IMG/VR virus record: IMGVR_UViG_3300042567_001420
Strand: one strand, 5' to 3'
Length of the DNA: 64,000 bases
Source of the DNA: a virus
Lineage: Duplodnaviria > Caudoviricetes
Shown here: positions 4,815 to 50,066 of the stretch, piece after piece
Position numbering within the stretch: position 1 is the stretch's first letter
How the letters are laid out: the number at the start of each line of letters is the position of its first letter
The notes under the pieces: generated by a model
The model's database searches: none
Told to the model about the DNA's origin: nothing
What the model saw: only the letters and a program-made list of their open reading frames with translations
Position numbers and translations under genes: made by a program

Positions 4815-6761
4815 TTATTCTGCCTGACTAGCTTTCTTCATCATTTTATATGCGGATGACTTTTGTCCTGCAATCTTTGCCTGTGCTGCATGGACTTCTT
4901 GTCTATCAGCATCATGATATGTCTTAAATGCTTGATTAGCGGGATCTTGTATAAAGGATTTAAATGATACCATTCCAACTGGTTTGTCTGGATGACCTTG
5001 ACCAGCAATGGGTTTATCTATGCCATGAAATACATCTTTGTTGTCTGTAAAGTTGACATCTCTCTCACTTGCTTCTTTGAGTTTCATTTTGTTTTCCTCA
5101 TCTTTATCTTTTTGACTCTGTCTAATTGAAGATAAAGTCTTTGGTTGTTCTTTAGTAGAAGTATCTATCATTTTAGCACGATGCTTAACGTATTTTACTT
5201 TGCCTGTTATTGGATCTTTGCTTGGAACATATTCAAAATCTGCAGACGCAACATCTTCTTCTACTCCCCTTGCACCAATAACTGTTACTGTTGAGCCTGG
5301 ATCATTTGCATATGTGCCATCTCTATGCATATTAAGGTCGGACATGGTTTTCAAATGTGTTTGCATATACAGTAAATCCTTATCTGCAACACCTAATACA
5401 TTCATTGTATCGTGTGCAATAGCAAACTTCATATTAAAGTCATGAATCATTTGATCATCCGCAAAGCCTTTGGCTTTTGCTTCCTTTTCAATTTCAAGAT
5501 ATTGATCTGTTGCCATAATTGCTTGCAGAACATATTTCTTTGGAAGTTGGACTCTGGTAATTAATTCTTTTAATTGAGCAGATGCACCTGGGCACGTATG
5601 AAGAAATGATGTGGTATAACCATCGAATGTAAGTTCCATTCTACTGTTGCTCATCTCAGCCAATTGTTCTTTGGATAGGAACAATGCAGGAATTTGTTTT
5701 CCTTCAACATAAGCAGGCTTATATGCGCCGTTGTATTTAATTTTTTCTTTTTCCTGAGGTCCGTCAGAAAATTTCTTGAAGTTTTGTAACTTCGAAGTCT
5801 TAGATAATTTGGGGCGTAGATCAACGTGTAGTCCTGTGCCTGCTTTTTCGCCAAATATTTCTTGTATATCTTTTAGCCAGTGTTTAGATGTATCGCCGCT
5901 TTTTTGTTGTATCGTAACGTATGAAGATCCTCTGTATACGATCTCGCCCCGTGTTCCGTTAGTTGATTCAACTATATCGCCTAATTTAAAAATCTCGCCT
6001 GCTATGTAAGACTCTCTTACTGGCACGCACATTCCTTTATCTTTGCTGAATACTTCACCAACGGGACAAACAATCTTCATTTCAGGAGTCATACCGATGG
6101 CATGGTCTGTGCCTTCTGGTGTGCCCCAATCAAATCTATTTGGATTTTCGTAATCTTCTTTAACCGCTTTGATGTGGTTGACAATTTCCTCCGCATGAGG
6201 ATGTAATGCCTTAGGAAGACCAGATTTAAATTGCTTCATTTCGCCTGCTCTGGCATGAGCACGCATCTTAGTTCCGGACATTCCCTCTACGCCTTCTGCG
6301 TCAGGGTCTCTTTGTCCTGCAGAAACTACTTTAATTGATTTAAAATTGTAGTGGCCGTGTTTACCGGCAACATTATTATACTTGTTTAATGTCTTGTGAT
6401 ACTCATCCACACGATCAGAACCAGCAACCATAACCAAATGTTTATATCCTTGACTATGTATTTTAGATGCAGCGTGAAGGAAAGTAGGAGATTCTTTAGA
6501 AGCACCTGATACTTTGGTGCCTTCTGGTGCCACGTGTTTTAGATATCCTACCTTGGCCTTGGCGGGAACAGGATCTTTTGATGTACCTTCAGAATGAGAT
6601 GCAACAATATGTGCAGTAGCATTGTGCTCATCCGCAACAGATTTGACTTTATTAATGAGTTTTTCGTGTCCAACGGTAGGCGGATTGAATCGCCCAAAGG
6701 CAAAAGCTGCTGTTTTTTCAGGCGCTTCTGTGATGAATTGTTTAAAGTCCATGTGGTCCAT
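4815..6761 (-). CDS. Cytidyltransferase-like (HIGH superfamily) nucleotidyltransferase with long C-terminal extension
   Basis: FGRFNPPTVGHEKL, VAGSDRV and MSGTKMR motifs in the first ~200 aa. Confidence 0.8.
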   Translation of the reverse strand: MDHMDFKQFITEAPEKTAAFAFGRFNPPTVGHEKLINKVKSVADEHNATAHIVASHSEGTSKDPVPAKAKVGYLKHVAPEGTKVSGASKESPTFLHAASKIHSQGYKHLVMVAGSDRVDEYHKTLNKYNNVAGKHGHYNFKSIKVVSAGQRDPDAEGVEGMSGTKMRAHARAGEMKQFKSGLPKALHPHAEEIVNHIKAVKEDYENPNRFDWGTPEGTDHAIGMTPEMKIVCPVGEVFSKDKGMCVPVRESYIAGEIFKLGDIVESTNGTRGEIVYRGSSYVTIQQKSGDTSKHWLKDIQEIFGEKAGTGLHVDLRPKLSKTSKLQNFKKFSDGPQEKEKIKYNGAYKPAYVEGKQIPALFLSKEQLAEMSNSRMELTFDGYTTSFLHTCPGASAQLKELITRVQLPKKYVLQAIMATDQYLEIEKEAKAKGFADDQMIHDFNMKFAIAHDTMNVLGVADKDLLYMQTHLKTMSDLNMHRDGTYANDPGSTVTVIGARGVEEDVASADFEYVPSKDPITGKVKYVKHRAKMIDTSTKEQPKTLSSIRQSQKDKDEENKMKLKEASERDVNFTDNKDVFHGIDKPIAGQGHPDKPVGMVSFKSFIQDPANQAFKTYHDADRQEVHAAQAKIAGQKSSAYKMMKKASQAE

Positions 6762-6781
6762 TAGAATATAGTTGATACTTA

Positions 6782-6880
6782 TTATTTATAAAATAAGGAT
6801 GTTTGGTTTATAGGAGGTATCGGATAAGGATGTTTTGGTTTAGGGGGATTTTTTTTAGGTTTGTGTTTGAACCAGCTCAT
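6782..6880 (-). CDS. Small Pro/Lys-rich protein (32 aa)
   Basis: MSWFKHKPKKNPPKPKHPYPIPPINQTSLFYK, GGAGG Shine-Dalgarno. Confidence 0.45.
   Translation of the reverse strand: MSWFKHKPKKNPPKPKHPYPIPPINQTSLFYK
6783..6790 (-). promoter_or_regulatory. T4-type late promoter TATAAATA
   Basis: Exact consensus upstream of 6761. Confidence 0.7.
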
Positions 6881-6973
6881 GTTGCCTCCGTTTTATCCAA
6901 AGTTAACCAAAAGTTATAGACAATCTATTGACATGATGTTATTATATGCTATGAGGCTCAGTGATAAGAAGCA

Positions 6974-7663
6974 TTAACAATTCCACTTTCTCAGTGCTTT
7001 GTTGATTCTTGAATCAGGGTCTCTAGCAGTCTCTGCAGATGTCAATCGCTTCTTCATTCCACCCATACGAGCACAAAAAGATTTTCTTCTATTAGCTGCT
7101 TTGCTTCCTGGCTTTAATTTAGATGGTTTAGTAGTTACGGCCATTTGTAACTTTGAACCGGGATTTTCTCTACGATATGAAGCAACACCCTTAGCATTTA
7201 ATCCGCCTTCAGGATTCTTACCCTCTTTGCGTTGCCAAGCAGCGACTTCAAATAGGTCTTCATCTGAAATATCTTTAAGGTCTTCCCAAATCACATCCGA
7301 ATCAACATTGTTTTCTTTTGCAATATCTTCGATCACATCTTCAATTAGATCAAACAGTTCTTCGGCTTCTTCAACTTTAACGCAATCATCTTTGCCGTTT
7401 GTTGTACCACTGTAACGATATCCATCCCAGCATGCTTTACCGTCGGCACCCTTGGCTTTGTCTTTTTTGGCTTCTGCCACGGTTTCTGACGCATTTTTAA
7501 AGTCTTGTTTGGATGGCGCGCCATCACTTCCAGGTGCACGCATACGTTCTCCGGATCCAGATTTGATTCGTTTGCGTTTTGCGTGAATGTTATCCCATAA
7601 CCCGGGACGATTGCCTTCGTCAATGGATTGAATTTCTTCTATTAGTTGTTTAAATGTTTTCAT
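6974..7663 (-). CDS. Hypothetical modular protein, possible head-internal protein
   Basis: MKTFKQLIEE start; GLWDNIHAKR, CWDGY and AWQRKEGKNPEGGLN modules. Confidence 0.7.
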   Translation of the reverse strand: MKTFKQLIEEIQSIDEGNRPGLWDNIHAKRKRIKSGSGERMRAPGSDGAPSKQDFKNASETVAEAKKDKAKGADGKACWDGYRYSGTTNGKDDCVKVEEAEELFDLIEDVIEDIAKENNVDSDVIWEDLKDISDEDLFEVAAWQRKEGKNPEGGLNAKGVASYRRENPGSKLQMAVTTKPSKLKPGSKAANRRKSFCARMGGMKKRLTSAETARDPDSRINKALRKWNC

Positions 7664-7669
7664 TTTAAT

Positions 7670-8104
7670 TTACTTTGTAGCTACATTAATTGCAGGACCT
7701 TTGCGTTCTGCATTAGGATCTTCTCTGCGTTTTCTTGCGGCGGCTTTGGCGCGCCCTTCTTTTCCCAAACTATGCGCTTGACTTTGCGGTAAACATTTTG
7801 GTTTACCTTCAGTATCATCTTCTCTCGCACAATCTCCTCGTATTTTACCATCAGGTCCAAAACGAACCCATTTGTCTTTAAACCATTTGTTTAAATTTTC
7901 ATCTACTTGTACGGTAGTATCTGCGATTGTATCTTCATTTTTACTAGAATTTCCCCAATTTGCCGCACCAACTTTGCGGCATTTAACTAACGCTCCGCTA
8001 GCATATGCCGAAGGCCAAACGCTATAGCGGCTTTTGACTTTATAATAGCAAGCATCTTTATTTTCATAAAGCAATTCTTCTCTTACTTGTTTAAATGTTT
8101 TCAT
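7670..8104 (-). CDS. Hypothetical protein, possible head-internal protein
   Basis: MKTFKQVREE start; WPSAYASG and KWFKDKW modules. Confidence 0.7.
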   Translation of the reverse strand: MKTFKQVREELLYENKDACYYKVKSRYSVWPSAYASGALVKCRKVGAANWGNSSKNEDTIADTTVQVDENLNKWFKDKWVRFGPDGKIRGDCAREDDTEGKPKCLPQSQAHSLGKEGRAKAAARKRREDPNAERKGPAINVATK

Positions 8105-9270
8105 CTTGGTCTCGCTGCAAAATTGGCTGCACTAAATTCTTCTCTATCTACTAGCTTTGTTGGTCTGTTGTTTAATACTGCAACATGACCTTCGGGTTTA
8201 ACTTTTTTACCATCAATGCTATGATGGAATTTATAATCCGCATTTGACATTGTTTGTACTAAAACATTTTTTGCATTTTGCAAATGTTTATGTATATCCA
8301 ACGTCTTTTTAAATGAATCTTTATTGGTATCAATATGATCCAACTTTTCATTCATATCCGCAGCTTTGTTTTGTTTGGCTTTATCGGTTTTAACTTTATC
8401 AATGCCTTTTTGCAGAGAACTTTGTAGATGTTTCTTATAGCCTTCTACCGATGGCTTTGAGGTGTCTCTCACAGTTGAATTAATATAAGTCTTTAATGAT
8501 TCATCGTGACCTTCGAGATGATCGTAATTGGGTAAATCATTGTGTGCTTCAACGGCCTTGGCCATGTGAGAATGATATTCTTGTTGAGCATCTGGGGTAT
8601 AATGTGCAGTCTTAGGATCAAATTTGGTATCAATTACATGAACATCTGGATGTGAATTAAATTTAGAAGTGTCAGTATTATATTCTGCCTTCATGTTCTC
8701 AAGTGTATCTCCGCGATATGCTGTGTGAACTGCTACACCAAATTTTGCATCTTTGATCTTTTGGCCTTCTTCACTGCCCTTTTTAGCAGAGTATGTAATT
8801 GTGTTAGGCTTAAAATGATAGGATCCGCCAGAATCGGATACATCTTTATCCGACTTATTATACATTACGTCACCTTGAAACACCCCTTCGTTAGGTGTTA
8901 CTTTAGGCAAGTGGTATAGCGCTGCTTTTAATTTGGCAACAAGTCCAGGTGAATGACCGTGGTTCTTTTCAATATCAGATTCTGTAAAATTTAATTTGGG
9001 ATTCTTGTTGAATGCAGATTTAGATGCAACAAAGAATCTAGGAAACTCCGGGTGAGTGCCAAACACAATACTAGGCGAGCCATCATACTTTGTGGATAAA
9101 GATACCTTTGATCTTTTGCCTAACAAAGCATTGTGTGTTTCGTTTAAAGTATTGAATACGTGCTTAAAGCCTTCTTCCCCTGCATTAATAGGGTGATCTT
9201 CTGCGTGTTCGAGGTGTGTTAACTTTTCCTCGTTCGCAGACTCAACTAAGTATGTGCTAAATGATAACAT
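8101..9270 (-). CDS. Ligase-fold (covalent nucleotidyltransferase-like) protein
   Basis: KYDG, FVASKS, FQGD, PEGHV and TKLV occur in the order of ligase motifs I, Ia, III, IV, V. Confidence 0.55.
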   Translation of the reverse strand: MLSFSTYLVESANEEKLTHLEHAEDHPINAGEEGFKHVFNTLNETHNALLGKRSKVSLSTKYDGSPSIVFGTHPEFPRFFVASKSAFNKNPKLNFTESDIEKNHGHSPGLVAKLKAALYHLPKVTPNEGVFQGDVMYNKSDKDVSDSGGSYHFKPNTITYSAKKGSEEGQKIKDAKFGVAVHTAYRGDTLENMKAEYNTDTSKFNSHPDVHVIDTKFDPKTAHYTPDAQQEYHSHMAKAVEAHNDLPNYDHLEGHDESLKTYINSTVRDTSKPSVEGYKKHLQSSLQKGIDKVKTDKAKQNKAADMNEKLDHIDTNKDSFKKTLDIHKHLQNAKNVLVQTMSNADYKFHHSIDGKKVKPEGHVAVLNNRPTKLVDREEFSAANFAARPR

Positions 9271-11697: not shown

Positions 11698-11949
11698 TTA
11701 AGCACGAGTGAAAGCATCGCTACCCATAGTAGCATAAGCTGCTGCTACCATTGTGCGGGATGGGGTACCCAAGCGATATGCTGTTTTACCATTCTTAGTA
11801 GAATTGGTATAGATTGCGTGACCTTCAGAACGAAGCTCACTGATACGAGGACGAACGCTGCCCTCAGTTGTGCCAGTCAAACCTGCCAATTGGGCGGGTG
11901 TGAATTGACGACCAGACAAAAGAACTTTCAATACACGGTCTTTAACCAT
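11698..11949 (-). CDS. Winged helix-turn-helix DNA-binding protein
   Basis: TPAQLAGLTGTTEGSVRPRISELRSEGHAI. Confidence 0.7.
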   Translation of the reverse strand: MVKDRVLKVLLSGRQFTPAQLAGLTGTTEGSVRPRISELRSEGHAIYTNSTKNGKTAYRLGTPSRTMVAAAYATMGSDAFTRA

Positions 11950-12023
11950 ATAATATCTCCATTAAATAAACAGTCGCTTCAAAATATATCAGTAACGGCG
12001 ACTTTTCATTACTGTATATAACT

Positions 12024-12052
12024 ATTATACAGCATTTAGCTGTATCTGTCAA
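12024..12052 (-). promoter_or_regulatory. sigma70-type early promoter
   Basis: TTGACA-N17-TATAAT exact. Confidence 0.85.
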
Positions 12053-12060
12053 GCACTTAG

Positions 12061-12282
12061 TTAGCCTTTTTGTGGCTTCTTGACCTTGTTCAAATATTCT
12101 CTACCAATAAAACCCTGCTCAACTTCATTCAAAGCAGTTACAATTGGCTTATGATGTTTTGCATCAATTTTTGGTGCATATCCTTTGCGCAATTCTCTGG
12201 CGCGAGCTGATGCAATTAGCACCAGATCATACCGATTACCTACCATGTTAACTGCATCTTCTGATGTGATTTGATTTGACAT
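12061..12282 (-). CDS. rpoZ: RNA polymerase omega subunit homologue
   Basis: ITSEDAV...NRYDLVLIASARAREL..G...KP.V.AL.E. Confidence 0.85.
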   Translation of the reverse strand: MSNQITSEDAVNMVGNRYDLVLIASARARELRKGYAPKIDAKHHKPIVTALNEVEQGFIGREYLNKVKKPQKG

Positions 12283-12752
12283 TATGCTACCTTTACGATT
12301 TCTTTTAAACGATCTGCACAGTATGTTGCCGCGAATGCTTTTGGTTTAACAAAAGGAACCACATTACACATACCCTTAATATACCCAATGGCTTCACCTA
12401 CAACGCAAGAAGAGCCAAACATTTCATCTGGGTTAATATCTAAATGAACTTCAATTGGTCTATCATCAATTAGTTTTTCCAATTCAAGATATAAATTTGC
12501 AATTTTGATTACTTCATTCATCAAACGCATACGAGGTTTGTTTTTACGTTGGTCATAATCTTTTTCGGTTTGAACTTCTCCAAAAATTTTACAACCATGT
12601 TTACCATCAATATGAACTACAATTGCCAAAGTATAATCGGCAAACCACATATCATTTTTACGGAAACGTTCTGAATCGCAACCAATATAAATTTTTGTAT
12701 CTGGACCTTGAGCATCAATATACTCTTTAATTTTTACGAAATCGAATTTCAT
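12282..12752 (-). CDS. RNase H-like YkuK family protein
   Basis: KIYIGCDS, RLMNEV, VHLDINPD, VKPKAFAATYCADR. Confidence 0.75.
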   Translation of the reverse strand: MKFDFVKIKEYIDAQGPDTKIYIGCDSERFRKNDMWFADYTLAIVVHIDGKHGCKIFGEVQTEKDYDQRKNKPRMRLMNEVIKIANLYLELEKLIDDRPIEVHLDINPDEMFGSSCVVGEAIGYIKGMCNVVPFVKPKAFAATYCADRLKEIVKVA

Positions 12753-12761
12753 TTTTATTCC

Positions 12762-12835
12762 TGGAGCGGGGTAGGAGAATCGAACTCCTCGCTTTAGCTT
12801 GGAAGGCTAAGGTATTACCACTATACGAACCCCGC
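12762..12835 (-). tRNA. tRNA-Gly(TCC)
   Basis: Cloverleaf, loop CTTCCAA, CCA end. Confidence 0.9.
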
Positions 12836-12837
12836 AT

Positions 12838-13617
12838 TTACAATATTACTTCATTTGTTTTGCGCATATCTGCACAAGTATACTCCTGATAACTTGCCTT
12901 TAAAATTTCTGGCATCGGAATAATTTCAATCTCCGCATGATATTCTTCTGCAACCATATCCGCAACATCATAAAAACTCATAGTTTTACCTGTGCCCATA
13001 TTAAAGATTCCAGATCTACTTGATTCTAAAAACTTTAAATGATAATCCACAATAGATTTCACATGAACAAAATCTCTACGATAATTTTCACTATTCTCAA
13101 ATAATTTAATCTTACCTGTTTCTATGGCTTGTTTCTTAAACTGAGCAAATGGGCTTGCCTGATTGCCTTTATGTTCTTCACCTTCCCAAGCCCATACATT
13201 AAAATATCTAAATCCTTGCACAATGGGACTATCATGATGATGTTGTTTTACATATCTTTCAAACAAATACTTTGACCAAGCATAAGGCGTTCTTGGATCC
13301 AACGGAGAATTTTCGCAAAACTCTTTATTCAATCCATACACACTTGCAGAACTAGAATACTGTAAATTAACTCCGAATGTTTTACACTCATCGTATAAAT
13401 CCATGGAGAATTCGTAATTTTGTCTTAGTACTTTATCAATATCTTTTTCGGTTGTTGAACTAATAGCACCAGCATGAATAACCCATTCAAAATCCATAAC
13501 ACCTGGTCTCGGACCATCATCATATTCATACGTTGCAACATCATCACCTCGATCGCGCAAGGCCGTCAATAGTCTAGAACCAATAAATCCTCTATGACCT
13601 GTTAGCAATATTTTCAT
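12838..13617 (-). CDS. hldD: ADP-L-glycero-D-manno-heptose 6-epimerase-like SDR
   Basis: TGHRGFIG, YSSSASVYG, YAWSK, RYFNVW, RDFVHV, YQEYTCAD. Confidence 0.75.
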   Translation of the reverse strand: MKILLTGHRGFIGSRLLTALRDRGDDVATYEYDDGPRPGVMDFEWVIHAGAISSTTEKDIDKVLRQNYEFSMDLYDECKTFGVNLQYSSSASVYGLNKEFCENSPLDPRTPYAWSKYLFERYVKQHHHDSPIVQGFRYFNVWAWEGEEHKGNQASPFAQFKKQAIETGKIKLFENSENYRRDFVHVKSIVDYHLKFLESSRSGIFNMGTGKTMSFYDVADMVAEEYHAEIEIIPMPEILKASYQEYTCADMRKTNEVIL

Positions 13618-13906
13618 TGTAATATACCTCGCTGTTTACCGCTTTATCATCGATCCAAATATCGTATGCGGGTTTACCTAATTTTAATGTTGTATACTTA
13701 ACTTGCCAGTTGGCAAATTGTTGTCTTGTAAGAGTTGTCCAATCAATACCAGAGTTACCACCTCTTGCTGTCCAATAATGAATCTCATTTCCCGCATCAA
13801 ACAGTTTATTAAAATGTGCAATTCGATCCGCAAAAGGTTGAGCACTATGATAATCACCTACAGTATTACTACAAATTGTGCCATCAATATCTACAAGGTA
13901 TTTCAT
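13592..13906 (-). CDS. Small HAD-superfamily phosphatase
   Basis: VDIDGTI, TARG, GKP...IDDK. Confidence 0.8.
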   Translation of the reverse strand: MKYLVDIDGTICSNTVGDYHSAQPFADRIAHFNKLFDAGNEIHYWTARGGNSGIDWTTLTRQQFANWQVKYTTLKLGKPAYDIWIDDKAVNSEVYYNENIANRS

Positions 13907-14259
13907 GTCTGACTATCTCCAGGTGCAACTCTATAATTATCTTCTACCGAATCAGGTGTACTAACTTCAATGATAGTACCTTCTTCCTGACAAACCAATT
14001 GATGCGGTAAACATGGAGGATTGTGCCAAGTATCGCCCGATTTAAGATACTTAATTTGTTCTTTGGCTGTTTTGGTATCAATCCATTTGACAAAGAATAA
14101 CCCGTCAAGTACATACCATGATTCATCTTTTTCAGAATGAAAGTGCATACTAAATTTTGCACCAGAGTTGAACTTCATCAACTTGCCGCAATATTTATCG
14201 TTAGTAGCCCAGATTAATTCGTGACCCCAACCTTTTTTAACAAAACCCTCAAGCCTCAT
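13903..14259 (-). CDS. Cupin (sugar-phosphate isomerase-like) protein
   Basis: KKGWGHE, SMHFHSEKDESW, PHQL, EVSTPD. Confidence 0.75.
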   Translation of the reverse strand: MRLEGFVKKGWGHELIWATNDKYCGKLMKFNSGAKFSMHFHSEKDESWYVLDGLFFVKWIDTKTAKEQIKYLKSGDTWHNPPCLPHQLVCQEEGTIIEVSTPDSVEDNYRVAPGDSQT

Positions 14260-15035
14260 TTTATTTCCTTTAGTGTAGGTGCATAATTGCCAACATGCTG
14301 TACTGTAATTGACGATGCTTTATTTGCAAATCTGATTGCATCTTCAATACTATTCGTCACCAGATATTGATAAGCTAAGGCGGCTAAGAATGTATCACCT
14401 GCCCCACACGCATCAAGAACATCAACTTTTTTGGTTGCGTAATTTGTGTTGACATACTCACTCCGTAACATTGCACCATTGGCACCCAACGTCACAATCA
14501 TATCCCATGCATACGACTCAGCCGCTTCAAATTCTTTTTCGTTGATTTTAACGTAAGCACCATTAAACGCTTCTAAGTTTCTTTTCTTCGTATCGATAAA
14601 AACTGGCCCATTAAAATTGTGAATCAGATTTTGAATGTGTTCGTAAGTTAAAAAGCCTTTATTGTAATCAGACACAACAACAGCATCATAACCTTCCGTA
14701 TCTACAATTCCATCCCATGGCTCTATCTTTGGCTCATCATCTATTCTAACAATTTGATATCCAGATTTTTCGTCTATGATTCTAGTCTTTGTGATCCTAG
14801 GTTCACCATTAATGCCAGCAGACGGATTTGAAATTATGGTTGTGTTACACCCAAGTTTATGCAGATTGCTATGGACATTTCGTGCCATACCAAGTCTGGT
14901 TTCTTTTCGTGTTAGTTTGATTATGGGAATTGGGGCTTCTGGACTCAATCTATCGATTGTTCCATATTGATAAACATCTATGCAAGAATCACCGAGCAAT
15001 AATATTTTGAATTGTTTTTGTTGTTGAATATCCAT
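14256..15035 (-). CDS. PfkB family kinase, HldE/RfaE domain I-like (heptose-7-phosphate kinase)
   Basis: LLGDSCIDVY, RLSPEAPIP, SDYNKG, DACGAGDTF. Confidence 0.8.
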   Translation of the reverse strand: MDIQQQKQFKILLLGDSCIDVYQYGTIDRLSPEAPIPIIKLTRKETRLGMARNVHSNLHKLGCNTTIISNPSAGINGEPRITKTRIIDEKSGYQIVRIDDEPKIEPWDGIVDTEGYDAVVVSDYNKGFLTYEHIQNLIHNFNGPVFIDTKKRNLEAFNGAYVKINEKEFEAAESYAWDMIVTLGANGAMLRSEYVNTNYATKKVDVLDACGAGDTFLAALAYQYLVTNSIEDAIRFANKASSITVQHVGNYAPTLKEIK

Positions 15036-15384
15036 TTACCAAATCCACAAATCTAATCTCTTTACAATATTGACTTCCCACAATAGGCTTATCTTTATAA
15101 TCACTACCCTTAACCATTATAGGGGAATACTGTTTACAAAGCATTTCTAATTCTTTAGCTGAATCAAATATATGAACAGCACTAACTGCTCTTAAATTTT
15201 GTAACAGATGTTTTCTATCATCTTGATTATTAATAGGTCTACTATTGCCTTTTAATTCTTTAACTCGTCTATCCGAATCAATACAGACTATAAGTTGTTG
15301 ACCACAACCTCTGGCATAATTAAGTAATTCGATATGTCCTCTATGGACAATATCAAAGGTGCCGTTGACAAGAATATTAATCAT
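14989..15384 (-). CDS. Heptose-1-phosphate adenylyltransferase-like, HldE/RfaE domain II
   Basis: NGTFDIVHRGH, KGNSRPIN, VKGSDY, GYSTT. Confidence 0.85.
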   Translation of the reverse strand: MINILVNGTFDIVHRGHIELLNYARGCGQQLIVCIDSDRRVKELKGNSRPINNQDDRKHLLQNLRAVSAVHIFDSAKELEMLCKQYSPIMVKGSDYKDKPIVGSQYCKEIRFVDLVNGYSTTKTIQNIIAR

Positions 15385-15390
15385 ATAAAA

Positions 15391-15467
<77 letters not shown>

Positions 15468-15484
15468 GTTGTTTCTATTAAAAA

Positions 15485-15569
15485 TGGTACCTGAGACCGG
15501 AATCGAACCGGTACACCTTGCGGCGAGAGATTTTAAGTCTCTTGTGTCTACCTATTTCACCACTCAGGC
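15485..15569 (-). tRNA. tRNA-Leu(TAA)
   Basis: Cloverleaf with long variable arm. Confidence 0.9.
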
Positions 15570-15575
15570 GTTTGG

Positions 15576-15872
15576 TTATCCTCGGTAGTCTACATCTATT
15601 TCCGACCAAGTACGCAGCTTATCGAATTTTCTTTGTTTAAACTGAATTACATTATTATAAGAAATAACTTTGTGCGAATCTAACAATTCAATCATTGCGA
15701 GAACATCGCCCAATTCTTCTTCAAGATGGTTTGTATTTGTTTTGCTTGGGGTATTTGGATGTGTATCAAACAATCCGAATCGAAATACTTTCGATGTTGC
15801 TTGAATTACTTCTGCGCATTCTTCTTGTAAAATCTGAAGAATGGCTGCTTGATCTTTGTTAAGTTCATTCAT
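15576..15872 (-). CDS. MazG-like NTP pyrophosphohydrolase
   Basis: LQEECAEVIQA...LEEELGDVL. Confidence 0.8.
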   Translation of the reverse strand: MNELNKDQAAILQILQEECAEVIQATSKVFRFGLFDTHPNTPSKTNTNHLEEELGDVLAMIELLDSHKVISYNNVIQFKQRKFDKLRTWSEIDVDYRG

Positions 15873-15891
15873 ATTGTCACCTTAAAAATAT

Positions 15892-15920
15892 ATTATAACA
15901 GAATACGTGTTATATGTCAA
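15892..15920 (-). promoter_or_regulatory. sigma70-type early promoter
   Basis: TTGACA-N17-TATAAT with TG extended -10. Confidence 0.85.
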
Positions 15921-16348
15921 GCATATTCGTAATTTACGGTATCCAAATTCTTTCTAAATTCTGTCGCACCGTTTTTCAAATGGAATCGTTTGGCCATTTC
16001 AGTAGGTGGGCTTAGTGTAACAAATCTTTTTATACTTGGACGAGTACTTGTTATATGGTCTCTGGCTTTAAAGATAAGTTCGCGACCTGCACCCGGAGTA
16101 TAACTCCATATGGTGTAGAATATAACGGTATCTGGTTCAGCGGGTTTGAAGAAAAGTTCCTCGCAGGTTGTCGGGATGCTGTCCATATAGGCAACACATA
16201 CTACTGCTTGCGGTTTTTCATCTTTGAGGAGTATGAGAACTTCCCTATTTTCGGTGATTCGAAAAGCGACGGGAATCTCAGGGCGGACAGGGTCGTCTTC
16301 GATTACTCGAAGAATCGGATCATCTAAATTTTGTGGTTTATATATCAT
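15917..16348 (-). CDS. Hypothetical protein, possibly GNAT-like
   Basis: FYTIWSYTPGAGRELI...AKRFHLKNG; TATAAATA at 16371-16378. Confidence 0.5.
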   Translation of the reverse strand: MIYKPQNLDDPILRVIEDDPVRPEIPVAFRITENREVLILLKDEKPQAVVCVAYMDSIPTTCEELFFKPAEPDTVIFYTIWSYTPGAGRELIFKARDHITSTRPSIKRFVTLSPPTEMAKRFHLKNGATEFRKNLDTVNYEYA

Positions 16349-16451
16349 AACTAAGTCCCGGTGTCAATTATATTTATACCGGCCATATAGGGTTATTTAA
16401 CTTTTTCAAACTTTATTTTTGCCGATAAATATAAAAACTATTTTATCTATT

Positions 16452-17018
16452 ATGAATCCATACGAAGAACTTGGCGTTTCAAAAAATGCATCTACCGAAG
16501 ACATAAGACAACGGTATAGGACGCTTGCGCAATTCCATCATCCTGACAAAGGAGGAGATGAGGAAGTATTCAAACGCATAAAACTTGCATATGAAATTCT
16601 AAGCGATTTTATTCGTAGAAAAGAATATGATAAAACAGGAAATATTTTAGAATCTCGTGGCACCAGAGGTGAAGCGCTTGAACGTATTGCTCAAATGCTA
16701 TTTAGTATTGTTCCAAACTTTAATCCAGAACATGATAATTTAATTGTACTAATGACTAACGAAGTCATAGCTGTCAAAAATGGGGTGATGCAAAATATAG
16801 ATAGTTGCAATAATCATTTGCAAAAACTCAGTAGGGTTATTGAACGTCTTTCTATTAAGACTGCGGATGAGAATATCATATTGCAGTTCCTAGAAAAGCA
16901 TGTGGAAATTCGCAAACAAGAGAATCTAGAATTAAAAAGAAGACTAGAAGTCTGCGATGTTGTTATCGAAATACTAAAAGATTACGAATACGGGCTAATT
17001 AGCTTGCCCGATATGTAA
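16452..17018 (+). CDS. DnaJ-domain protein
   Basis: NPYEELGV...YRTLAQFHHPDKGGD (HPD motif); ATG at 16452. Confidence 0.85.
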   Translation: MNPYEELGVSKNASTEDIRQRYRTLAQFHHPDKGGDEEVFKRIKLAYEILSDFIRRKEYDKTGNILESRGTRGEALERIAQMLFSIVPNFNPEHDNLIVLMTNEVIAVKNGVMQNIDSCNNHLQKLSRVIERLSIKTADENIILQFLEKHVEIRKQENLELKRRLEVCDVVIEILKDYEYGLISLPDM

Positions 17019-17107
17019 TGGCGGAGAGTGTGGGAATCGAACCCACTCACCGGTATAAGCCGATGACAGATTAGCAATCTGCTGCATTACCATCCTGCCC
17101 ACTCTCC
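17019..17107 (-). tRNA. tRNA-Ser(GCT)
   Basis: Cloverleaf, long variable arm. Confidence 0.9.
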
Positions 17108-17111
17108 TATA

Positions 17112-17199
17112 TGGCGGAAACGGTGAGATTCGAACTCACGGATCCTTTCGAATCGCTAGTTTTCAAGACTAGAGCCATAGACCACTCGACCACATTTCC
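17112..17199 (-). tRNA. tRNA-Ser(TGA)
   Basis: Cloverleaf, long variable arm. Confidence 0.9.
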
Positions 17200-17378
17200 T
17201 AAATTCTTTTTTCTTCTACTTGTCGTAACGAATCTTTTCGGATTAGAAATTTTCTGCTATTCTCGATACGCCTAACGTGCAAATACTCTACTCCATCAAT
17301 CAATTGTACATTCTTTAAATTGTCACAATAAAACTTTTCAGTCTTATTGAATTGATTTTCAAATATAACTACTTTCAT
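17199..17378 (-). CDS. Hypothetical protein (59 aa)
   Basis: MKVVIFEN start with AAAGGAG Shine-Dalgarno; the track's longer start overlaps a tRNA. Confidence 0.6.
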   Translation of the reverse strand: MKVVIFENQFNKTEKFYCDNLKNVQLIDGVEYLHVRRIENSRKFLIRKDSLRQVEEKRI

Positions 17379-17393
17379 ATTTGCTCCTTTAAA

Positions 17394-17470
17394 TGGCCGG
17401 ACCGGAGAGATTCGAACTCCCAACCTCAAGTTTCGAAGACTTGCTTTCTATCCAATTGAATTACGGTCCG
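17394..17470 (-). tRNA. tRNA-Arg(TCG)
   Basis: Cloverleaf, loop CTTCGAA. Confidence 0.85.
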
Positions 17471-17472
17471 TT

Positions 17473-17546
17473 TGGCAGAGGGTACAAGAATCGAACTTGT
17501 GATCTCGGAATCAAAATCCGATGTTATGCCATTTAACTAACCCCCA
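17473..17546 (-). tRNA. tRNA-Gln(TTG)
   Basis: Cloverleaf, loop TTTTGAT. Confidence 0.85.
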
Positions 17547-17549
17547 ATA

Positions 17550-17819
17550 TTATTCTTCTTCAATAACAGCAAGAACATCTTCTTCATTAATAATGCCTAA
17601 GAATTCTTCACCATTTTTGAATGGTTTTACTTTGCTCCATGACAAGTAAATTTTATCGCCTGCTTTTACTTCTTGAACATCTGGCCCTACAGAAACAACA
17701 ATACTAATTCTAGTATCATTAGATGCAAGTGCACCTTGTAGGATAATGCCACTTTCAGTTTCTTCAGGAAGTTTTTCTTCGCGAATAACAATACGATCAT
17801 GCAATGGAATAAAGTTCAT
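17550..17819 (-). CDS. groES: Co-chaperonin GroES
   Basis: FIPLHDRIVIR, ESGIIL, VVSVGP, EEDVLAVIE. Confidence 0.9.
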   Translation of the reverse strand: MNFIPLHDRIVIREEKLPEETESGIILQGALASNDTRISIVVSVGPDVQEVKAGDKIYLSWSKVKPFKNGEEFLGIINEEDVLAVIEEE

Positions 17820-17842
17820 AATTTTCTTTCTAAAAAATAAAG

Positions 17843-17917
17843 TGGTCCGGCGACCAGGAATCGAACCTGGATTGATAGCTTAGAAGGCTACTGTTCTATC
17901 CATTGAACTACCGCCAG
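17843..17917 (-). tRNA. tRNA-Arg(TCT)
   Basis: Cloverleaf. Confidence 0.9.
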
Positions 17918-17923
17918 ATGTTT

Positions 17924-17998
17924 TGGTGCCGACTATCGGATTCGAACTGATGACCTATCGCTTACAAGGCGATTGCACTACCACTGTGCTAAGTCGGC
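17924..17998 (-). tRNA. tRNA-Thr(TGT)
   Basis: Cloverleaf. Confidence 0.9.
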
Positions 17999-18005
17999 AA
18001 AATTT

Positions 18006-18034
18006 ATTATAACATACTAGACATCATATGTCAA
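18006..18034 (-). promoter_or_regulatory. sigma70-type early promoter
   Basis: TTGACA-N17-TATAAT with TG extended -10. Confidence 0.85.
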
Positions 18035-18042
18035 GCATTATT

Positions 18043-18116
18043 TGGCATCCCCCAAGAGACTCGAACTCTTACTAACGGTTTTGGAGACCGTGGTGCTGCC
18101 ATTACACTAGGGAGAA
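18043..18116 (-). tRNA. tRNA-Trp(CCA)
   Basis: Cloverleaf. Confidence 0.85.
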
Positions 18117-18122
18117 ATAATT

Positions 18123-18198
18123 TGGTACGCGGTGACGGGTTCGAACCGCCGACATTCTGCGTGTAAGGCAGACGCTCTACCAACTGAGCTAACCGCGC
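18123..18198 (-). tRNA. tRNA-Val(TAC)
   Basis: Cloverleaf. Confidence 0.9.
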
Positions 18199-18200
18199 AT

Positions 18201-18275
18201 TGGTGGTGATAGTAAGAATCGAACTTACACTGAACAGCGTATGAAGCTGGTGCACTACCGTTATGCTATATCACC
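18201..18275 (-). tRNA. tRNA-Met(CAT)
   Basis: Cloverleaf, loop TTCATAC. Confidence 0.8.
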
Positions 18276-18280
18276 GGAAG

Positions 18281-18353
18281 ATTGGGAGTGAGAGTCGAAC
18301 TCACATTACGCGGCTTATACATCCCCGTTTCTAACCAATTGAAATATCCCAAT
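18281..18353 (-). pseudogene. Degenerate tRNA-like gene (nominal anticodon TAT)
   Basis: Intact acceptor, D and T arms; two mismatches in the anticodon stem, G at position 33, no encoded CCA. Confidence 0.6.
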
Positions 18354-18359
18354 CTAATC

Positions 18360-18435
18360 TGGGCAGAAGTATGGGAATCGAACCCATATTAACGGAATCA
18401 CAATCCGTGGTGTTAACCGTTACACTAACAACTGC
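18360..18435 (-). tRNA. tRNA-His(GTG)
   Basis: Cloverleaf with G-1:C73. Confidence 0.85.
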
Positions 18436-18440
18436 ATATT

Positions 18441-18534
18441 ACCATATAGAAACACTCTTGTTTGGATTCGAACCTTGTTCTAGTATTGTCTATCTGCGCT
18501 TCCCACAGTGCTGACAAGAGTGCTTTTATATGGT
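18441..18534 (-). ncRNA. Candidate structured RNA: 21-bp closing stem with internal T-loop-like motif
   Basis: Arms 18441-18461 and 18514-18534 pair (with G-U); GGTTCGAATCC inside. Confidence 0.55.
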
Positions 18535-18606
18535 ACGAGTAGGGGGATTCGAACCCACGACCAATAGATTAAAAGTCTACTGCTCTACCAACTGAGCTAT
18601 ACTCGC
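18531..18606 (-). tRNA. tRNA-Lys(TTT)
   Basis: Cloverleaf. Confidence 0.9.
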
Positions 18607-18717
18607 ATTATGTTGCCTTCGCAAAGCTTTGTTGCTTTTACGATGGACTCCCGCTTTGCGTTGTAAAGCCAAAACAACGAAACGGTTACGTTGCTTGACG
18701 ATTATCTTGTGTTTCAT
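18577..18717 (-). CDS. Small basic protein (46 aa) overlapping tRNA-Lys
   Basis: MKHKIIVKQRNRFVVLALQRKAGVHRKSNKALRR..., AAGGAG Shine-Dalgarno. Confidence 0.55.
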   Translation of the reverse strand: MKHKIIVKQRNRFVVLALQRKAGVHRKSNKALRRQHNASIAQLVEQ

Positions 18718-18743
18718 AACTGCTCCTTGTTAAAAATTAAAAA

Positions 18744-18828
18744 TGGTGGAGATGATTGGGATCGAACCAATTGTGACGTGAGTCGGAAGATTTACAGTCT
18801 CCTGCCATACCATTACGGCGGCATCTCC
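18744..18828 (-). tRNA. tRNA-Tyr(GTA)
   Basis: Cloverleaf, long variable arm. Confidence 0.9.
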
Positions 18829-18833
18829 AAATT

Positions 18834-18909
18834 TGGCTGGCCAACCTGGGCTCGAACCAGGGACATTTTGATTAACAGTCAAACGCTCTACCAACTGAGC
18901 TATAGGCCA
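18834..18909 (-). tRNA. tRNA-Asn(GTT)
   Basis: Cloverleaf. Confidence 0.9.
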
Positions 18910-18919
18910 ATAAAAACTA

Positions 18920-18993
18920 TGGTCTCGGTAGGAAGAATCGAACTTCCGTCTCATGGTCCCAAACCACGAATTCTACCATTAAACTACACCGAG
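18920..18993 (-). tRNA. tRNA-Pro(TGG)
   Basis: Cloverleaf. Confidence 0.9.
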
Positions 18994-19001
18994 TTAAAAA
19001 T

Positions 19002-19077
19002 TGGTGGAGGAGACAGGGATCGAACCTGCGACCTATTGCTTGCAAAGCAACCGCTCTCCCAACTGAGCTACACCCCC
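19002..19077 (-). tRNA. tRNA-Ala(TGC)
   Basis: Cloverleaf with G3:U70. Confidence 0.9.
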
Positions 19078-19171
19078 ATATTGAAACACTCTCGTTCTCC
19101 ATACCTTCTTGGGGATCAATCAAGGTCTTACTTCTTAGAACCTGCGTCCAGTTTAGAATGTTTCAATATGG
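19076..19171 (-). ncRNA. Candidate structured RNA: 17-bp closing stem, related to 18441-18534
   Basis: ccatattgaaacactct pairs with agaatgtttcaatatgg. Confidence 0.5.
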
Positions 19172-19245
19172 TGCCTAAGGAGAGACTCGAACTCTCAAAA
19201 TTTGGCTTCTAAGACCAACACGTATACCAATTCCGTCACCTAGGC
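19169..19245 (-). tRNA. tRNA-Leu(TAG), short variable region
   Basis: Cloverleaf, loop CTTAGAA, 77 nt. Confidence 0.85.
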
Positions 19246-19249
19246 AAAT

Positions 19250-19455
19250 GCTCTGCGTCCTCCGGCGGTAATTATAGTACAAAAAAATATGACGCTATCA
19301 TATTCCCCATGCGTACCTTCCACCCGCTCCCCGACAAGGACCGCTCTCGTGCTGCCAACGGCCTTTAGGTAAAAAGACTACCACCCTTGAGTGACGAACT
19401 CACTTCGCTTCGTATGGGTCATACTAGCCAGACGTTACTCCGGCGGGTTCTAAAA
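19250..19455 (-). ncRNA. Candidate structured ncRNA with RNase P S-domain-like landmarks
   Basis: GC-richer, no convincing ORF, several hairpins, 9-bp long-range helix 19377-19385/19264-19272. Confidence 0.45.
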
Positions 19456-19526
19456 TGGTTGGTCCCACTTTGAGGTGCCATTTAACTTAGACTCTCTTTA
19501 TGCATTTATAGACTAAGACCATAACT

Positions 19527-19602
19527 TGGCGGTCTGTAGGGAATTCGAATCCCTGCTACAAGCGTGACAGGCTCGCGTGCTTACCGCTAACACTAACAGA
19601 CC
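19527..19602 (-). tRNA. tRNA-Asp(GTC)
   Basis: Cloverleaf. Confidence 0.9.
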
Positions 19603-19611
19603 AAAAACTTT

Positions 19612-19807
19612 TTAATTGGGGGACTACGCATATCTCACAAGACCGTCTCTTGTGCCTTCTGCCTCAACATTACAGGCCCACATACTCCAGCGTGACCACC
19701 GTATCAACCTTGCGGCTTCGTTTCCATCTTTCGTGTAATATAAAAGCTCTAGTCCGTCGACTTGAACACTTGTTATATTACCTACTGGTGAGGGTAACCC
19801 CAATTAA
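19612..19807 (-). ncRNA. Candidate ~195-nt multibranch ncRNA
   Basis: 10-bp terminal stem TTAATTGGGG/CCCCAATTAA, nested helices, starts just downstream of a consensus promoter. Confidence 0.55.
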
Positions 19808-19815
19808 TTAACTTA

Positions 19816-19844
19816 ATTATAACATCTTAACACACTTGTGTCAA
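19816..19844 (-). promoter_or_regulatory. sigma70-type early promoter
   Basis: TTGACA-N17-TATAAT with TG extended -10. Confidence 0.85.
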
Positions 19845-19854
19845 GCATTATTTT

Positions 19855-19932
19855 TGGAACCTAGAGTCAGATTCGAACTGACGATCTTACGGATTTGCAA
19901 TCCGTTGCATTTGACCACTCTGCCATCTAGGC
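19855..19932 (-). tRNA. tRNA-Cys(GCA)
   Basis: Cloverleaf. Confidence 0.9.
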
Positions 19933-19970
19933 GTACCATTATTTTATACACTTGGTAATGCACAAAATAA

Positions 19971-20046
19971 TGGCGTCCCGTACCAGATTCGAACTGGTGT
20001 AGTCACCGTGAAAGGGTGGTGTCCTAGGCCTCTAGACGAACGGGAC
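19971..20046 (-). tRNA. tRNA-Glu(TTC)
   Basis: Cloverleaf. Confidence 0.9.
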
Positions 20047-38373: not shown

Positions 38374-39102
38374 TTAGTAAATTTTATCTAATTGATATTC
38401 CTGAAGTGCGATAAATTCGGCTTCAGGAATTCTTGTCTTACCGTTTTTACTTCCAAGAACAACAACGATACGTCTGCCGATATCGGTATCAAGCATCATA
38501 ACGATGCAACCACCGGCAGCATTTGTTGTTCCAGTTTTACTCACAATAAAATTATGTCTCTTTCCAATAATAGGGTTTGTATTATTAAAAAAGAGCCACT
38601 TCTTTTTGATCTGAATTTTTACTTGCGGAGTTTTACTTGCTTCAACGATTTCAGGATAGTAGCTTGCAGCCAAAGTTAATTCCAACAAATCTTTAGCAGT
38701 ACTAATATTCATTGGGCTTAATCCCGATGCCTCAACAAATTTGGTGTTGTGCATATTAAGTGCAACAGCTTTTTCATTCATATCTCGAATACATTTAGAT
38801 TTGCCGCCGGGATATTTGTCACATAATAAAATAGCAGATTCATTACTTGACTTAACAAGAGCCAACTGTATATGTTGTTCCCTTGTAAACTTTCCAATTT
38901 TTTCTTTTGGATTTTGCCCAGCATCTATTACAACCATTGCAGCCATAAGTTTTGTGATACTGGCAATTGAACGAGATTCATTAATATTCTCGCCTTCAAT
39001 AATTTTACCGTTACTATTAGAAACAAGCCATGATTGAGCAGTCAAGTTCATGGAAAAGGCATTACCCGTTAAAAGTAATGCCAATAATAATATATACTTC
39101 AT
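38374..39102 (-). CDS. Peptidase S11 (D-Ala-D-Ala carboxy/endopeptidase, PBP7-like)
   Basis: Signal peptide; SITK (SxxK), SSN (SxN), KTG. Confidence 0.85.
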   Translation of the reverse strand: MKYILLLALLLTGNAFSMNLTAQSWLVSNSNGKIIEGENINESRSIASITKLMAAMVVIDAGQNPKEKIGKFTREQHIQLALVKSSNESAILLCDKYPGGKSKCIRDMNEKAVALNMHNTKFVEASGLSPMNISTAKDLLELTLAASYYPEIVEASKTPQVKIQIKKKWLFFNNTNPIIGKRHNFIVSKTGTTNAAGGCIVMMLDTDIGRRIVVVLGSKNGKTRIPEAEFIALQEYQLDKIY

Positions 39103-50054: not shown

Positions 50055-50066
50055 AAAATACTCAAT

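Follow-up and report, generated by a model that had tools for sequence, protein, structure and literature searches.

The bacterial ADP-heptose pathway comprises GmhA, HldE (or the separate proteins HldA and HldC), GmhB and HldD, the split HldA/HldC-type arrangement being found in some bacteria (e.g. 4e84, Burkholderia). In phages a related set of genes is known from the cyanomyovirus P-SSM2 (NC_006883), which holds five of them in adjacent positions (PSSM2_309-313), and modules of the same type occur in S-CAM1, S-CAM3, S-SSM7, S-SM2, P-TIM68 and SynMITS9220M01. Here we analyse a cassette of five minus-strand open reading frames (ORFs) in the virus record IMGVR_UViG_3300042567_001420, a stretch of 64,000 nucleotides to which we refer as the window. 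All five protein families of the P-SSM2-type module recur in this cassette, including the overlap between the nucleotidyltransferase and kinase genes, the window proteins being 33-43% identical to those of P-SSM2 by tblastn. Because the same five genes are clustered in P-SSM2, the module is not new and has been annotated in cyanomyoviruses since that genome. P-SSM2 differs from the window in having its phosphatase gene ahead of the cupin gene and in the inverted orientation of the epimerase gene, whereas the window phage, unlike P-SSM2, belongs to a freshwater, non-cyanophage T4-like lineage, and thousands of metagenomic viral copies are much more similar to its cupin (73-97%). With the bacterial pathway the cassette has in common the reaction logic and the families of the kinase, the adenylyltransferase and the 6-epimerase, but it carries a 118-aa cupin in place of the SIS-fold GmhA and a 104-aa capless haloacid dehalogenase-type (HAD) phosphatase of the 1xpj/AfhF type in place of the HAD-IIIA protein GmhB, and its nucleotidyltransferase gene precedes that of the kinase with a 47-nt overlap. 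We read the locus as an already known phage module, found here in a new lineage from fresh water, and it may represent a variant pathway with two displaced enzymes.

Judged from the sequence, the five genes probably constitute a self-sufficient phage pathway leading from sedoheptulose-7-phosphate to ADP-L-glycero-beta-D-manno-heptose. In the first step a metal cupin related to phosphomannose isomerase (PMI) would convert sedoheptulose-7-phosphate to D-glycero-D-manno-heptose-7-phosphate, a reaction that is the one-carbon-longer analogue of the conversion of fructose-6-phosphate to mannose-6-phosphate. The PfkB kinase would then phosphorylate C1, the small HAD protein (hereafter mini-HAD) would take off the 7-phosphate, the nucleotidyltransferase would add AMP, and a short member of the short-chain dehydrogenase/reductase (SDR) family would epimerise C6. 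For the second, fourth and fifth steps there is evidence at the family level, supplemented in the last case by aligned catalytic motifs, and we infer the first and the third. Two of the five steps are thereby proposed to use enzymes non-orthologous to the bacterial GmhA and GmhB.

The five ORFs fill positions 12838-15384 exactly, with overlaps of 47, 4, 4 and 26 nt between successive genes, and on account of these overlaps an earlier note, made from the sequence of the window alone, was correct in calling them coupled; its attribution of the DNA to a phage is likewise sound, since the window contains T4-like replication genes and 24 tRNA genes. Chance matches can be discounted because the ORFs are long and tightly packed and their E-values reach down to 1e-65. 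The 47-nt overlap (14989-15035) is kept down to P-SSM2, where it amounts to 41 nt, and the kinase N-terminus MDIQQQK is retained among kinases with about 50% identity elsewhere, the apparent reason being that the same bases encode the conserved C-terminal STTK motif of the nucleotidyltransferase. A fusion of the two proteins through frameshifting within this overlap was also considered and found no support, the kinase frame being +1 relative to that of the nucleotidyltransferase.

The nucleotidyltransferase matches PF01467 (7.9e-14) and phrog_7878 (1.9e-41), and its best NCBIfam family is TIGR02199 rfaE_dom_II (5.5e-34, 117.1 bits), followed by the generic TIGR00125 and then by glycerol-3-phosphate cytidylyltransferase at 47 bits; the closest chain in the PDB is 5x9q, a "putative cytidylyltransferase" (5e-16). 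Residues 14-17 of the protein read HRGH, and YSTTK lies close to its C-terminus; HxGH together with a C-terminal (I)STT are the nucleotidyltransferase motifs of HldE domain II and HldC. The kinase matches PF00294 (3e-19) and, best among the NCBIfam families, TIGR02198 rfaE_dom_I (6.6e-46), its closest PDB chain being 4e84, a D-beta-D-heptose 7-phosphate kinase (1.5e-17), with which it shares an N-terminal ...DR(L/I)SPEAP(I/V)P... stretch and GAGD; N165 and E168 (NxxE) and G211-D214 (GAGD) are invariant in an alignment of phage copies. For the epimerase the best NCBIfam family is TIGR02197 heptose_epim (2.4e-65), and in the PDB the E. coli ADP-L-glycero-D-mannoheptose 6-epimerase HldD (1eq2) scores 1e-45, as compared with 5e-17 for 6dnt, the top chain that does not carry the name of a heptose epimerase. 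In HldD the catalytic residues are the SDR serine, the YxxxK motif and a second lysine. The corresponding motifs of the window epimerase and HldD can be aligned (SSSAS with ASSAA, YAWSK with YGYSK, EHKGNQAS with GHKGSMAS), and GxxGxxG is present.

The mini-HAD is without any Pfam match. It matches phrog_1238 (1.3e-23) and, weakly, the capsule phosphatase family TIGR01689 EcbF-BcbF (4.2e-5; 23.5 bits against a cut-off of 162). Comparison with solved structures by sequence (phmmer) gave 9iqw (8.9e-9, 33% identity) and 1xpj (5e-5), and a Foldseek search with its AlphaFold model (predicted local distance difference test score, pLDDT, 86) placed the same two at the top (1xpj 3e-7; 9iqw 3.4e-6, TM 0.72). 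In contrast, no match to the GmhB models NF006506 and TIGR00213 was obtained at E<=0.01, and Foldseek hits of the model to GmhB structures reached E 0.02-0.12 only. The HAD motifs I-IV (D6/D8, T46, K78, D86/D87) are invariant across 31 aligned copies. The structure 9iqw is entitled phage HY126 D-arabinose 1,5-diphosphate phosphatase AfhF, and in the accessible portion of PMC13326640 AfhF is described as a Mg-dependent phosphatase that converts arabinose 1,5-bisphosphate to arabinose 1-phosphate ahead of UDP activation. The mini-HAD has the same small HAD fold and motifs, and the task of AfhF is like that proposed for the mini-HAD and also like that of GmhB, namely to strip a sugar 1,omega-bisphosphate of its distal phosphate prior to nucleotide activation. 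The AfhE/AfhF UDP-arabinose route differs from the cassette in its partners, a SIS isomerase and the AfhE kinase/UDP-sugar pyrophosphorylase, in its pentose sugar and in the transfer of its product onto DNA. By analogy with AfhF, and because GmhB-like genes occupy the same slot in other phages (see below), we propose that the mini-HAD would be the 7-phosphatase replacing GmhB.

The assignment of the cupin draws on several kinds of evidence. The window protein matches Cupin_2 (29.6 bits), and its clade shows kinship to the type II PMI family PF01050 (C-terminal domain of mannose-6-phosphate isomerase), which is matched at E<=0.01 by 22 of 25 members (best 4.7e-6), 8 of the 25 also matching D-lyxose isomerase; the PF01050 cut-off is exceeded by 3 of 25 longer or fused relatives. 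The metal-binding set HxH...E...H is conserved, H39 and H41 being invariant in two alignments and E46 and H86 invariant in one and nearly so in the other, and further invariant residues are K9, G10, W11, G12, E14, Y23, C24, G25, K26, K44, Q87, E98, S100, T101, D107 and R110. In size, cupin fold, His/His/Glu/His pattern and motif order the protein resembles type II PMI cupins, such as the 112-aa PMI of Thermococcus kodakarensis (7zvy) and ORF118 of cyanophage S-SCSM1. The latter, published as "MPI" (mannose-6-phosphate isomerase) according to the portion of PMC9602691 available, is 28% identical to the window cupin over 75 residues (hhalign probability 88), but its gene sits among GDP-mannose/GDP-fucose genes, whereas the window cupin clade sits among heptose genes, and the substrate predicted for the latter is one carbon longer than that of PMI. 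Sequence searches of the PDB with the cupin or its profile gave generic cupins only, e.g. oxalate decarboxylase and KdgF. In the ESM Atlas the cupin falls among 100% viral clusters, the next being bacterial clusters of 116-123 aa with PF01050 in 91-94% of members. The model (pLDDT 83) has a plain cupin fold, and its VIA structural rows are headed by the CapF cupin domain (Z 14.9; 109 residues, root-mean-square deviation 2.1), followed by KdgF (13.8), D-lyxose isomerase (13.3), the 112-aa Thermococcus PMI (13.0) and cPGI (12.7).

The cupin is also the most conserved and most constant partner of the kinase. A scan of IMG/VR found a kinase relative encoded in 498 of 594 stretches scanned, from which about 940 stretches in all are estimated, and a corresponding cupin scan found a relative in 597 of 600, giving an estimate of about 1800, such that the module appears to be very common in aquatic phages. 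Around the best 80 loci picked by the kinase we found the nucleotidyltransferase in 75, the cupin in 70, the epimerase (>=30% identity) in 50, the mini-HAD in 5 and a GmhB-like HAD of 200-215 aa in 5 different ones. There is redundancy among these loci: 76 of the kinases were called as ORFs, and these form 60 clusters at 95% identity, 52 of which have the cupin. The commonest gene order is cupin-epimerase-nucleotidyltransferase-kinase (24 of 80); cupin-nucleotidyltransferase-kinase occurs in 18 loci, nucleotidyltransferase-kinase-cupin in 2, and nucleotidyltransferase and kinase alone in 4. Conversely, among the best 80 loci picked by the cupin, the kinase is present in 59, the nucleotidyltransferase in 66, the epimerase in 47 and the mini-HAD in 4; 74 of the 80 have one or more of the other cassette genes. 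Among loci with kinases about 50% identical to one another, cupin identity is 60-82%, and the cupin has 4483 viral homologues, the best 120 of which are 73-97% identical to the window copy. In a library of representatives at 50% identity, 25 longer cupin relatives included one nucleotidyltransferase-cupin fusion (P0358) and two HAD-cupin fusions (P0290, P0368), the HAD matches of the last two being weak. In the phage collection the kinase occurs in 35 records (27-47% identity) and the cupin in 35 (33-40%), nearly the same cyanomyoviruses and marine single-cell viruses. A bacterial home for the cupin clade was not found, a scan of genome contigs with the cupin giving 2 loci. A close copy in only 1 of 301 Bacteroidota genomes lies on a 1.5-kb contig of a metagenome-assembled genome, together with the nucleotidyltransferase and the kinase, and is probably viral; around a 35%-identical cupin in the same assembly (G001:C329) tblastn detected no heptose genes within 20 kb.

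The GmhB-like HAD genes (L034:1917-2519, L038:6020-6649, L064:4355-5002, L065:8931-9578 and L094:6011-6649) always adjoin the cupin and so stand in the slot of the mini-HAD, and no examined locus has both phosphatase types. Those of L034, L065 and L094 score 137-138 bits to NF006506 (heptose-1,7-bisphosphate 7-phosphatase) and also exceed the HAD-IIIA cut-off. Their position beside the cupin adds a fourth heptose family to the module and indicates that the two phosphatase types alternate. That phosphatases of either type are rare in the relatives accords with the partial nature of the defect in E. coli gmhB mutants.

No such substitute from the bacterial pathway appeared at the first step. In the window, SIS-fold GmhA (TIGR00441/PF13580) was found neither by Pfam on the scanned ORFs nor by tblastn with two bacterial GmhA proteins, and the same two queries gave no match when the window was taken together with 92 viral loci (1.16 Mb). 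PF13580 was absent from all five records searched with it, complete P-SSM2 and four viral contigs, and no SIS gene was present among 28 ORFs from loci lacking the cupin. Because the isomerase step never has its canonical enzyme, while a metal cupin of the sugar-phosphate-isomerase kind is the one constant extra gene, we regard the cupin as, on balance, the likely sedoheptulose-7-phosphate isomerase replacing GmhA. The earlier note had observed that GmhA is not in the window and that the HAD is not a canonical GmhB, both of which are borne out, and had suggested that the cupin may be a non-orthologous isomerase, a suggestion strengthened by its PF01050 kinship, its constancy beside the kinase and the failure to find a SIS-type GmhA in the related viruses searched. 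Neither protein is so named in the databases: the label "phosphoheptose isomerase" sits on the HAD (phrog_1238, PSSM2_311), and the cupin is called "cysteine dioxygenase" (phrog_7851, PSSM2_312) or, in some GenBank records, "putative nucleotidyltransferase". These names do not fit the folds found and look wrong and propagated. Among the matches listed in a literature search, which left most subscription journals outside its reach, we found no paper linking a cupin to heptose-7-phosphate formation, nor any on a phage sedoheptulose 7-phosphate isomerase.

Several observations weigh against such a pathway. The scores of the nucleotidyltransferase (117.1 versus 181.5 bits), the kinase (156.9 versus 345 bits, with the match in three stretches) and the epimerase (220.8 versus 274.6 bits, spanning residues 41-256 only) all lie under the equivalog cut-offs of TIGR02199, TIGR02198 and TIGR02197, respectively. 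The kinase has 259 aa against 315 profile positions and the epimerase 259 aa against about 315-316; residues 26-41 of the latter stand for HldD 25-67, leaving some 26 residues fewer in the N-terminal dinucleotide-binding region, and the C-terminal tail of HldD is missing. Because all three scores are under the curated cut-offs, and because the kinase and the epimerase each fall short of their profiles by about 55 residues, we would say that these proteins appear to work like heptose enzymes, not that they are proven members of the families; the five enzyme assignments of the earlier note hold at the family level, the heptose scores from hidden Markov models (HMMs) falling short of equivalog status throughout. 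Similarly, the window cupin scores 19.1 bits to PF01050, under the gathering cut-off of 23.6, and since the Foldseek and VIA rows are tied, the fold alone does not decide its function, these searches offering no means of telling isomerases apart from metal cupins of other kinds. Of the 80 kinase-picked loci 75 lack the mini-HAD, and in 6 of the 80 cupin-picked loci the cupin is alone within 4 kb. Finally, within the 64 kb of the window Pfam finds no glycosyltransferase family 9 (GT9) gene, tblastn (E<1) gives no match to the phage GT9-like family described below, and there is no other obvious heptose acceptor gene.

The main rival to an isomerase role is that the cupin acts together with the SDR on a nucleotide sugar, in the manner of the CapF cupin domain or of RmlC-type epimerases, to yield a modified heptose, the heptose phosphates being supplied by GmhA and GmhB of the host. 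We take the CapF cupin domain to be fused to an SDR reductase and to act on a UDP-keto-sugar, the role of CapF presumably being that of an NDP-sugar epimerase. In favour of such a role this domain is the top VIA row, cupin and epimerase are adjacent in the commonest gene order, and the dispensability of the mini-HAD in most relatives implies some reliance on host enzymes. Yet the C-terminal cupin domain of CapF (2zkl) is 13% identical to the window protein and its score is tied with those of many unrelated cupins, the structural rows lying within about 2 Z units. Moreover, the 20 loci in which cupin, nucleotidyltransferase and kinase occur in the order cupin-nucleotidyltransferase-kinase or nucleotidyltransferase-kinase-cupin have no epimerase match within 7 kb, the full His-His-Glu-His set and the PF01050 and Lyx_isomer matches point to aldose-ketose isomerases, and GmhA is not found in P-SSM2, a complete genome. 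We consider the CapF-like role unlikely.

Less likely again is a pathway of the proposed logic with a sugar other than heptose, producing for example an activated manno-hexose or pentose for glycosylation of phage DNA or virion proteins, as AfhE and AfhF provide UDP-arabinose for DNA in HY126, RB69 and DLP3. The closest characterised relative of the mini-HAD is indeed AfhF of the arabinosyl-DNA pathway, a PMI-like cupin would suit the conversion of fructose-6-phosphate to mannose-6-phosphate, every heptose HMM score is under its cut-off, and the UvsX protein of the window phage is closest to the Xanthomonas/Stenotrophomonas T4-like group, DLP3 being a Stenotrophomonas phage. Nevertheless, the gap between the match of the epimerase to E. 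coli HldD and that to the best chain without a heptose name is wide (see above), a C6 epimerase needs a heptose, and relatives hold a GmhB-like phosphatase in the same cassette. The kinase and nucleotidyltransferase belong to the HldE/HldA/HldC families and not to those of AfhE as described in the accessible portion of PMC13326640, and in the window no dCMP hydroxylase, thymidylate-synthase-like gene or DNA glycosyltransferase was seen. What makes a product other than heptose the less likely alternative is how strongly the epimerase matches HldD, together with the occurrence of GmhB-like genes in relatives; we judge it improbable.

Evidence that ADP-heptose synthesis, or whatever the module performs, is maintained comes from an exchange of alleles. 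Between the window and the viral loci L008/L009 the nucleotidyltransferase, cupin, HAD, epimerase and flanking genes are 97-100% identical at the protein level, but the kinase (window 14256-15035, L008:4393-5133) only 52%, the genes next to it being 97-98% identical to those of L008. The window kinase instead shares 92% identity with that of L003-type phages (L003:8001-8768), the other cassette genes of which are 52-73% identical. The DNA alignment changes partner at about column 485, at the kinase 5' end within the overlap with the nucleotidyltransferase gene, and again at about column 1205, at the kinase stop and cupin start. The kinase gene alone has been exchanged by recombination with the precision of a gene, which implies selection on a working module. 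That the genes are decaying host-derived passengers without a phage function, as their shortened enzymes, sub-threshold scores and variable gene content among relatives (including the loci with nucleotidyltransferase and kinase alone) might suggest, is very improbable given this exchange, the intact catalytic motifs of all five proteins, the thousands of highly conserved viral homologues and the presence of the identical cassette in a lake run that is not marked as a source.

As to the fate of the product, host-surface alteration was proposed by Sullivan et al. 2005 (PMC1079782) and in a pelagimyophage study (PMC7029224) and, so far as the available portions of these papers extend, was not tested there. 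The earlier note named glycosylation of the virion and remodelling of host lipopolysaccharide as possible uses, both of which are conjectural. A candidate for the transfer of heptose is a phage GT9-like family of 309-370 aa with the N-terminus ...NGGAGR..C.IPA..., comprising PSSM2_307 (L019:901-2013), L183:991-1929 and an ORF of L184, which are 34-41% identical to one another, together with copies in L185 and L186. Its sole family matches are weak (Pfam GT9 14-22 bits; NCBIfam heptosyltransferase III, RfaQ and I 16-28 bits). Its distance from the cassette is 2-3 kb in P-SSM2, L061 and the L012 and L013 contigs and 13-15 kb in G309 and G310; in G314 and G315 the gene is far off, and the family was not found in G312, G313 and G316-G321. 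A Pfam search for GT9 was negative in G304, G306, G307, G308 and G311, a search that is insensitive, as shown by its failure to detect those of G303 and G305. On sequence grounds we regard the family as a candidate phage heptosyltransferase, a lead and not an association, the phages compared being cassette carriers.

The window is a fragment of a T4-like phage with a family B (gp43-type) polymerase, UvsX, a gp41-type helicase, the gp44/62/45 clamp loader and clamp and RegA, and it also encodes CobS/CobT-like genes and Hsp20. UvsX is closest to that of Phage C48C1 (67%), followed by those of Xanthomonas/Stenotrophomonas T4-like phages at about 60-63%, and a megablast of positions 12000-16500 against phages matched nothing but a tRNA. 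Near-identical DNA is present in lake-water and freshwater metagenome runs from 2016, 2020, 2023 and 2024; at least half of the sampled words occur in 21 of the 24 listed runs, 8 of which 21 may be the source, and a contig from the lake run mentioned above covers 12806-15440 without any differing letter. Because near-identical DNA recurs in several such runs, including this one without a source flag, the window is from a recurrent freshwater phage and not from a cyanophage isolate.

A perfect promoter-like site lies upstream of a MazG gene, two tRNAs and the cassette (Table 1), in a scan for the sigma-70 consensus that yielded 21 sites in total as compared with 18.1 expected; the site is a possible sigma-70-type early promoter of a unit that probably runs from it through MazG and the two tRNAs into the cassette. 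Over 12700-15950 three RNA-labelled runs gave contigs only at the tRNAs and MazG, with two short cassette pieces in one run that is probably DNA, most of the cassette being uncovered. A second perfect site is found just downstream of a 73-aa ORF (12061-12282) and upstream of a minus-strand gene (11698-11949). The 7.3-kb tRNA stretch encloses, besides the heptose cassette and MazG, a GNAT/MCD-like ORF, a DnaJ-like ORF and GroES.

Table 1. Positions of the cassette genes and of other features in the window (roles are proposed).
Feature	Positions	Strand	Size	Proposed role	Family match or method
Nucleotidyltransferase, HldE domain II/HldC-like	14989..15384	-	131 aa	heptose-1-phosphate adenylyltransferase	PF01467, TIGR02199, phrog_7878
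PfkB kinase, HldE domain I/HldA-like	14256..15035	-	259 aa	heptose-7-phosphate 1-kinase	PF00294, TIGR02198
Metal cupin, type II phosphomannose isomerase-related	13903..14259	-	118 aa	sedoheptulose-7-phosphate isomerase	Cupin_2, PF01050 (sub-cut-off)
Minimal HAD phosphatase, 1xpj/AfhF/EcbF-BcbF type	13592..13906	-	104 aa	heptose-1,7-bisphosphate 7-phosphatase	TIGR01689, phrog_1238
Short SDR epimerase, HldD-like	12838..13617	-	259 aa	ADP-D,D-heptose 6-epimerase	Epimerase, TIGR02197
tRNA-Met and tRNA-Leu, directly upstream of cassette	15391..15569	-			ARAGORN
tRNA-Gly, directly downstream of cassette	12762..12835	-			ARAGORN
24 tRNA genes	12762-20046 (23 in one 7.3-kb stretch) and 39404-39477	-			ARAGORN
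Promoter-like site TTGACA-17-TATAAT, 12/12, TG before -10	15892..15920	-			consensus scan, pattern match only
Second perfect 12/12 sigma-70 site	12024-12052	-			
Second, larger sugar cluster	44947-60798	-			
TPP enzyme of that cluster, split over two ORFs	51585-52610, 50848-51588	-			
Protein with N-terminal cytidylyltransferase-like domain and adjoining DUF6321 and DUF6267 proteins	4815-9270	-	648 aa (first protein)		phrog_3041/395; phrog_455/727
RCC1-repeat (beta-propeller) protein	29418-30536	+	372 aa		
D-Ala-D-Ala carboxypeptidase	38374-39102				Peptidase_S11

Sugar metabolism in the window extends beyond the cassette. The second cluster encodes a GDP-mannose 4,6-dehydratase (545 bits) and an RfbH-type 3-dehydrase (434 bits), both over the cut-off, a GDP-L-fucose synthase-like protein, a second DegT-type aminotransferase, an NDP-glucose 4,6-dehydratase-like protein, a methyltransferase, two GT2 glycosyltransferases, a GT10 fucosyltransferase-like protein and four ORFs without known function, in addition to the split thiamine pyrophosphate (TPP) enzyme; the pair formed by RfbH and the TPP enzyme recalls what we take to be a yersiniose-type route to a branched 3,6-dideoxyhexose. 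The cytidylyltransferase-like domain of the 648-aa protein lies outside the heptose cassette. The RCC1-repeat protein opens a block of large plus-strand ORFs, none of which has a family match and which may be tail-fibre or host-recognition genes. The carboxypeptidase recurs in this group of phages (L023:98-841, L035:7747-8454) and stands directly beside heptose genes in some relatives.

Should the proposed pathway be wrong, the cassette would still be one more example of a phage sugar module that has been annotated for a long time. A wider claim, to which we give somewhat less than even credence, is that the 118-aa cupin is the founding member of another family of sedoheptulose-7-phosphate isomerases, distinct from the SIS one and almost confined to viruses, and that aquatic T4-like phages make ADP-heptose without host heptose genes, for a purpose of their own served by the GT9-like transferase and not for the upkeep of the host lipopolysaccharide core. 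If true, the pathway would have a second isomerase family, unrelated to the first, at its opening step, which would amount to a new enzyme and to a textbook example of non-orthologous displacement. ADP-heptose synthesis is of interest as a target of antibiotic adjuvants and as the source of an innate-immune agonist. Some of the "mannose-6-phosphate isomerase" signal counted in viromes would, on this reading, stem from heptose synthesis, which suggests that viral "MPI" auxiliary genes are perhaps not all about central carbon flow.

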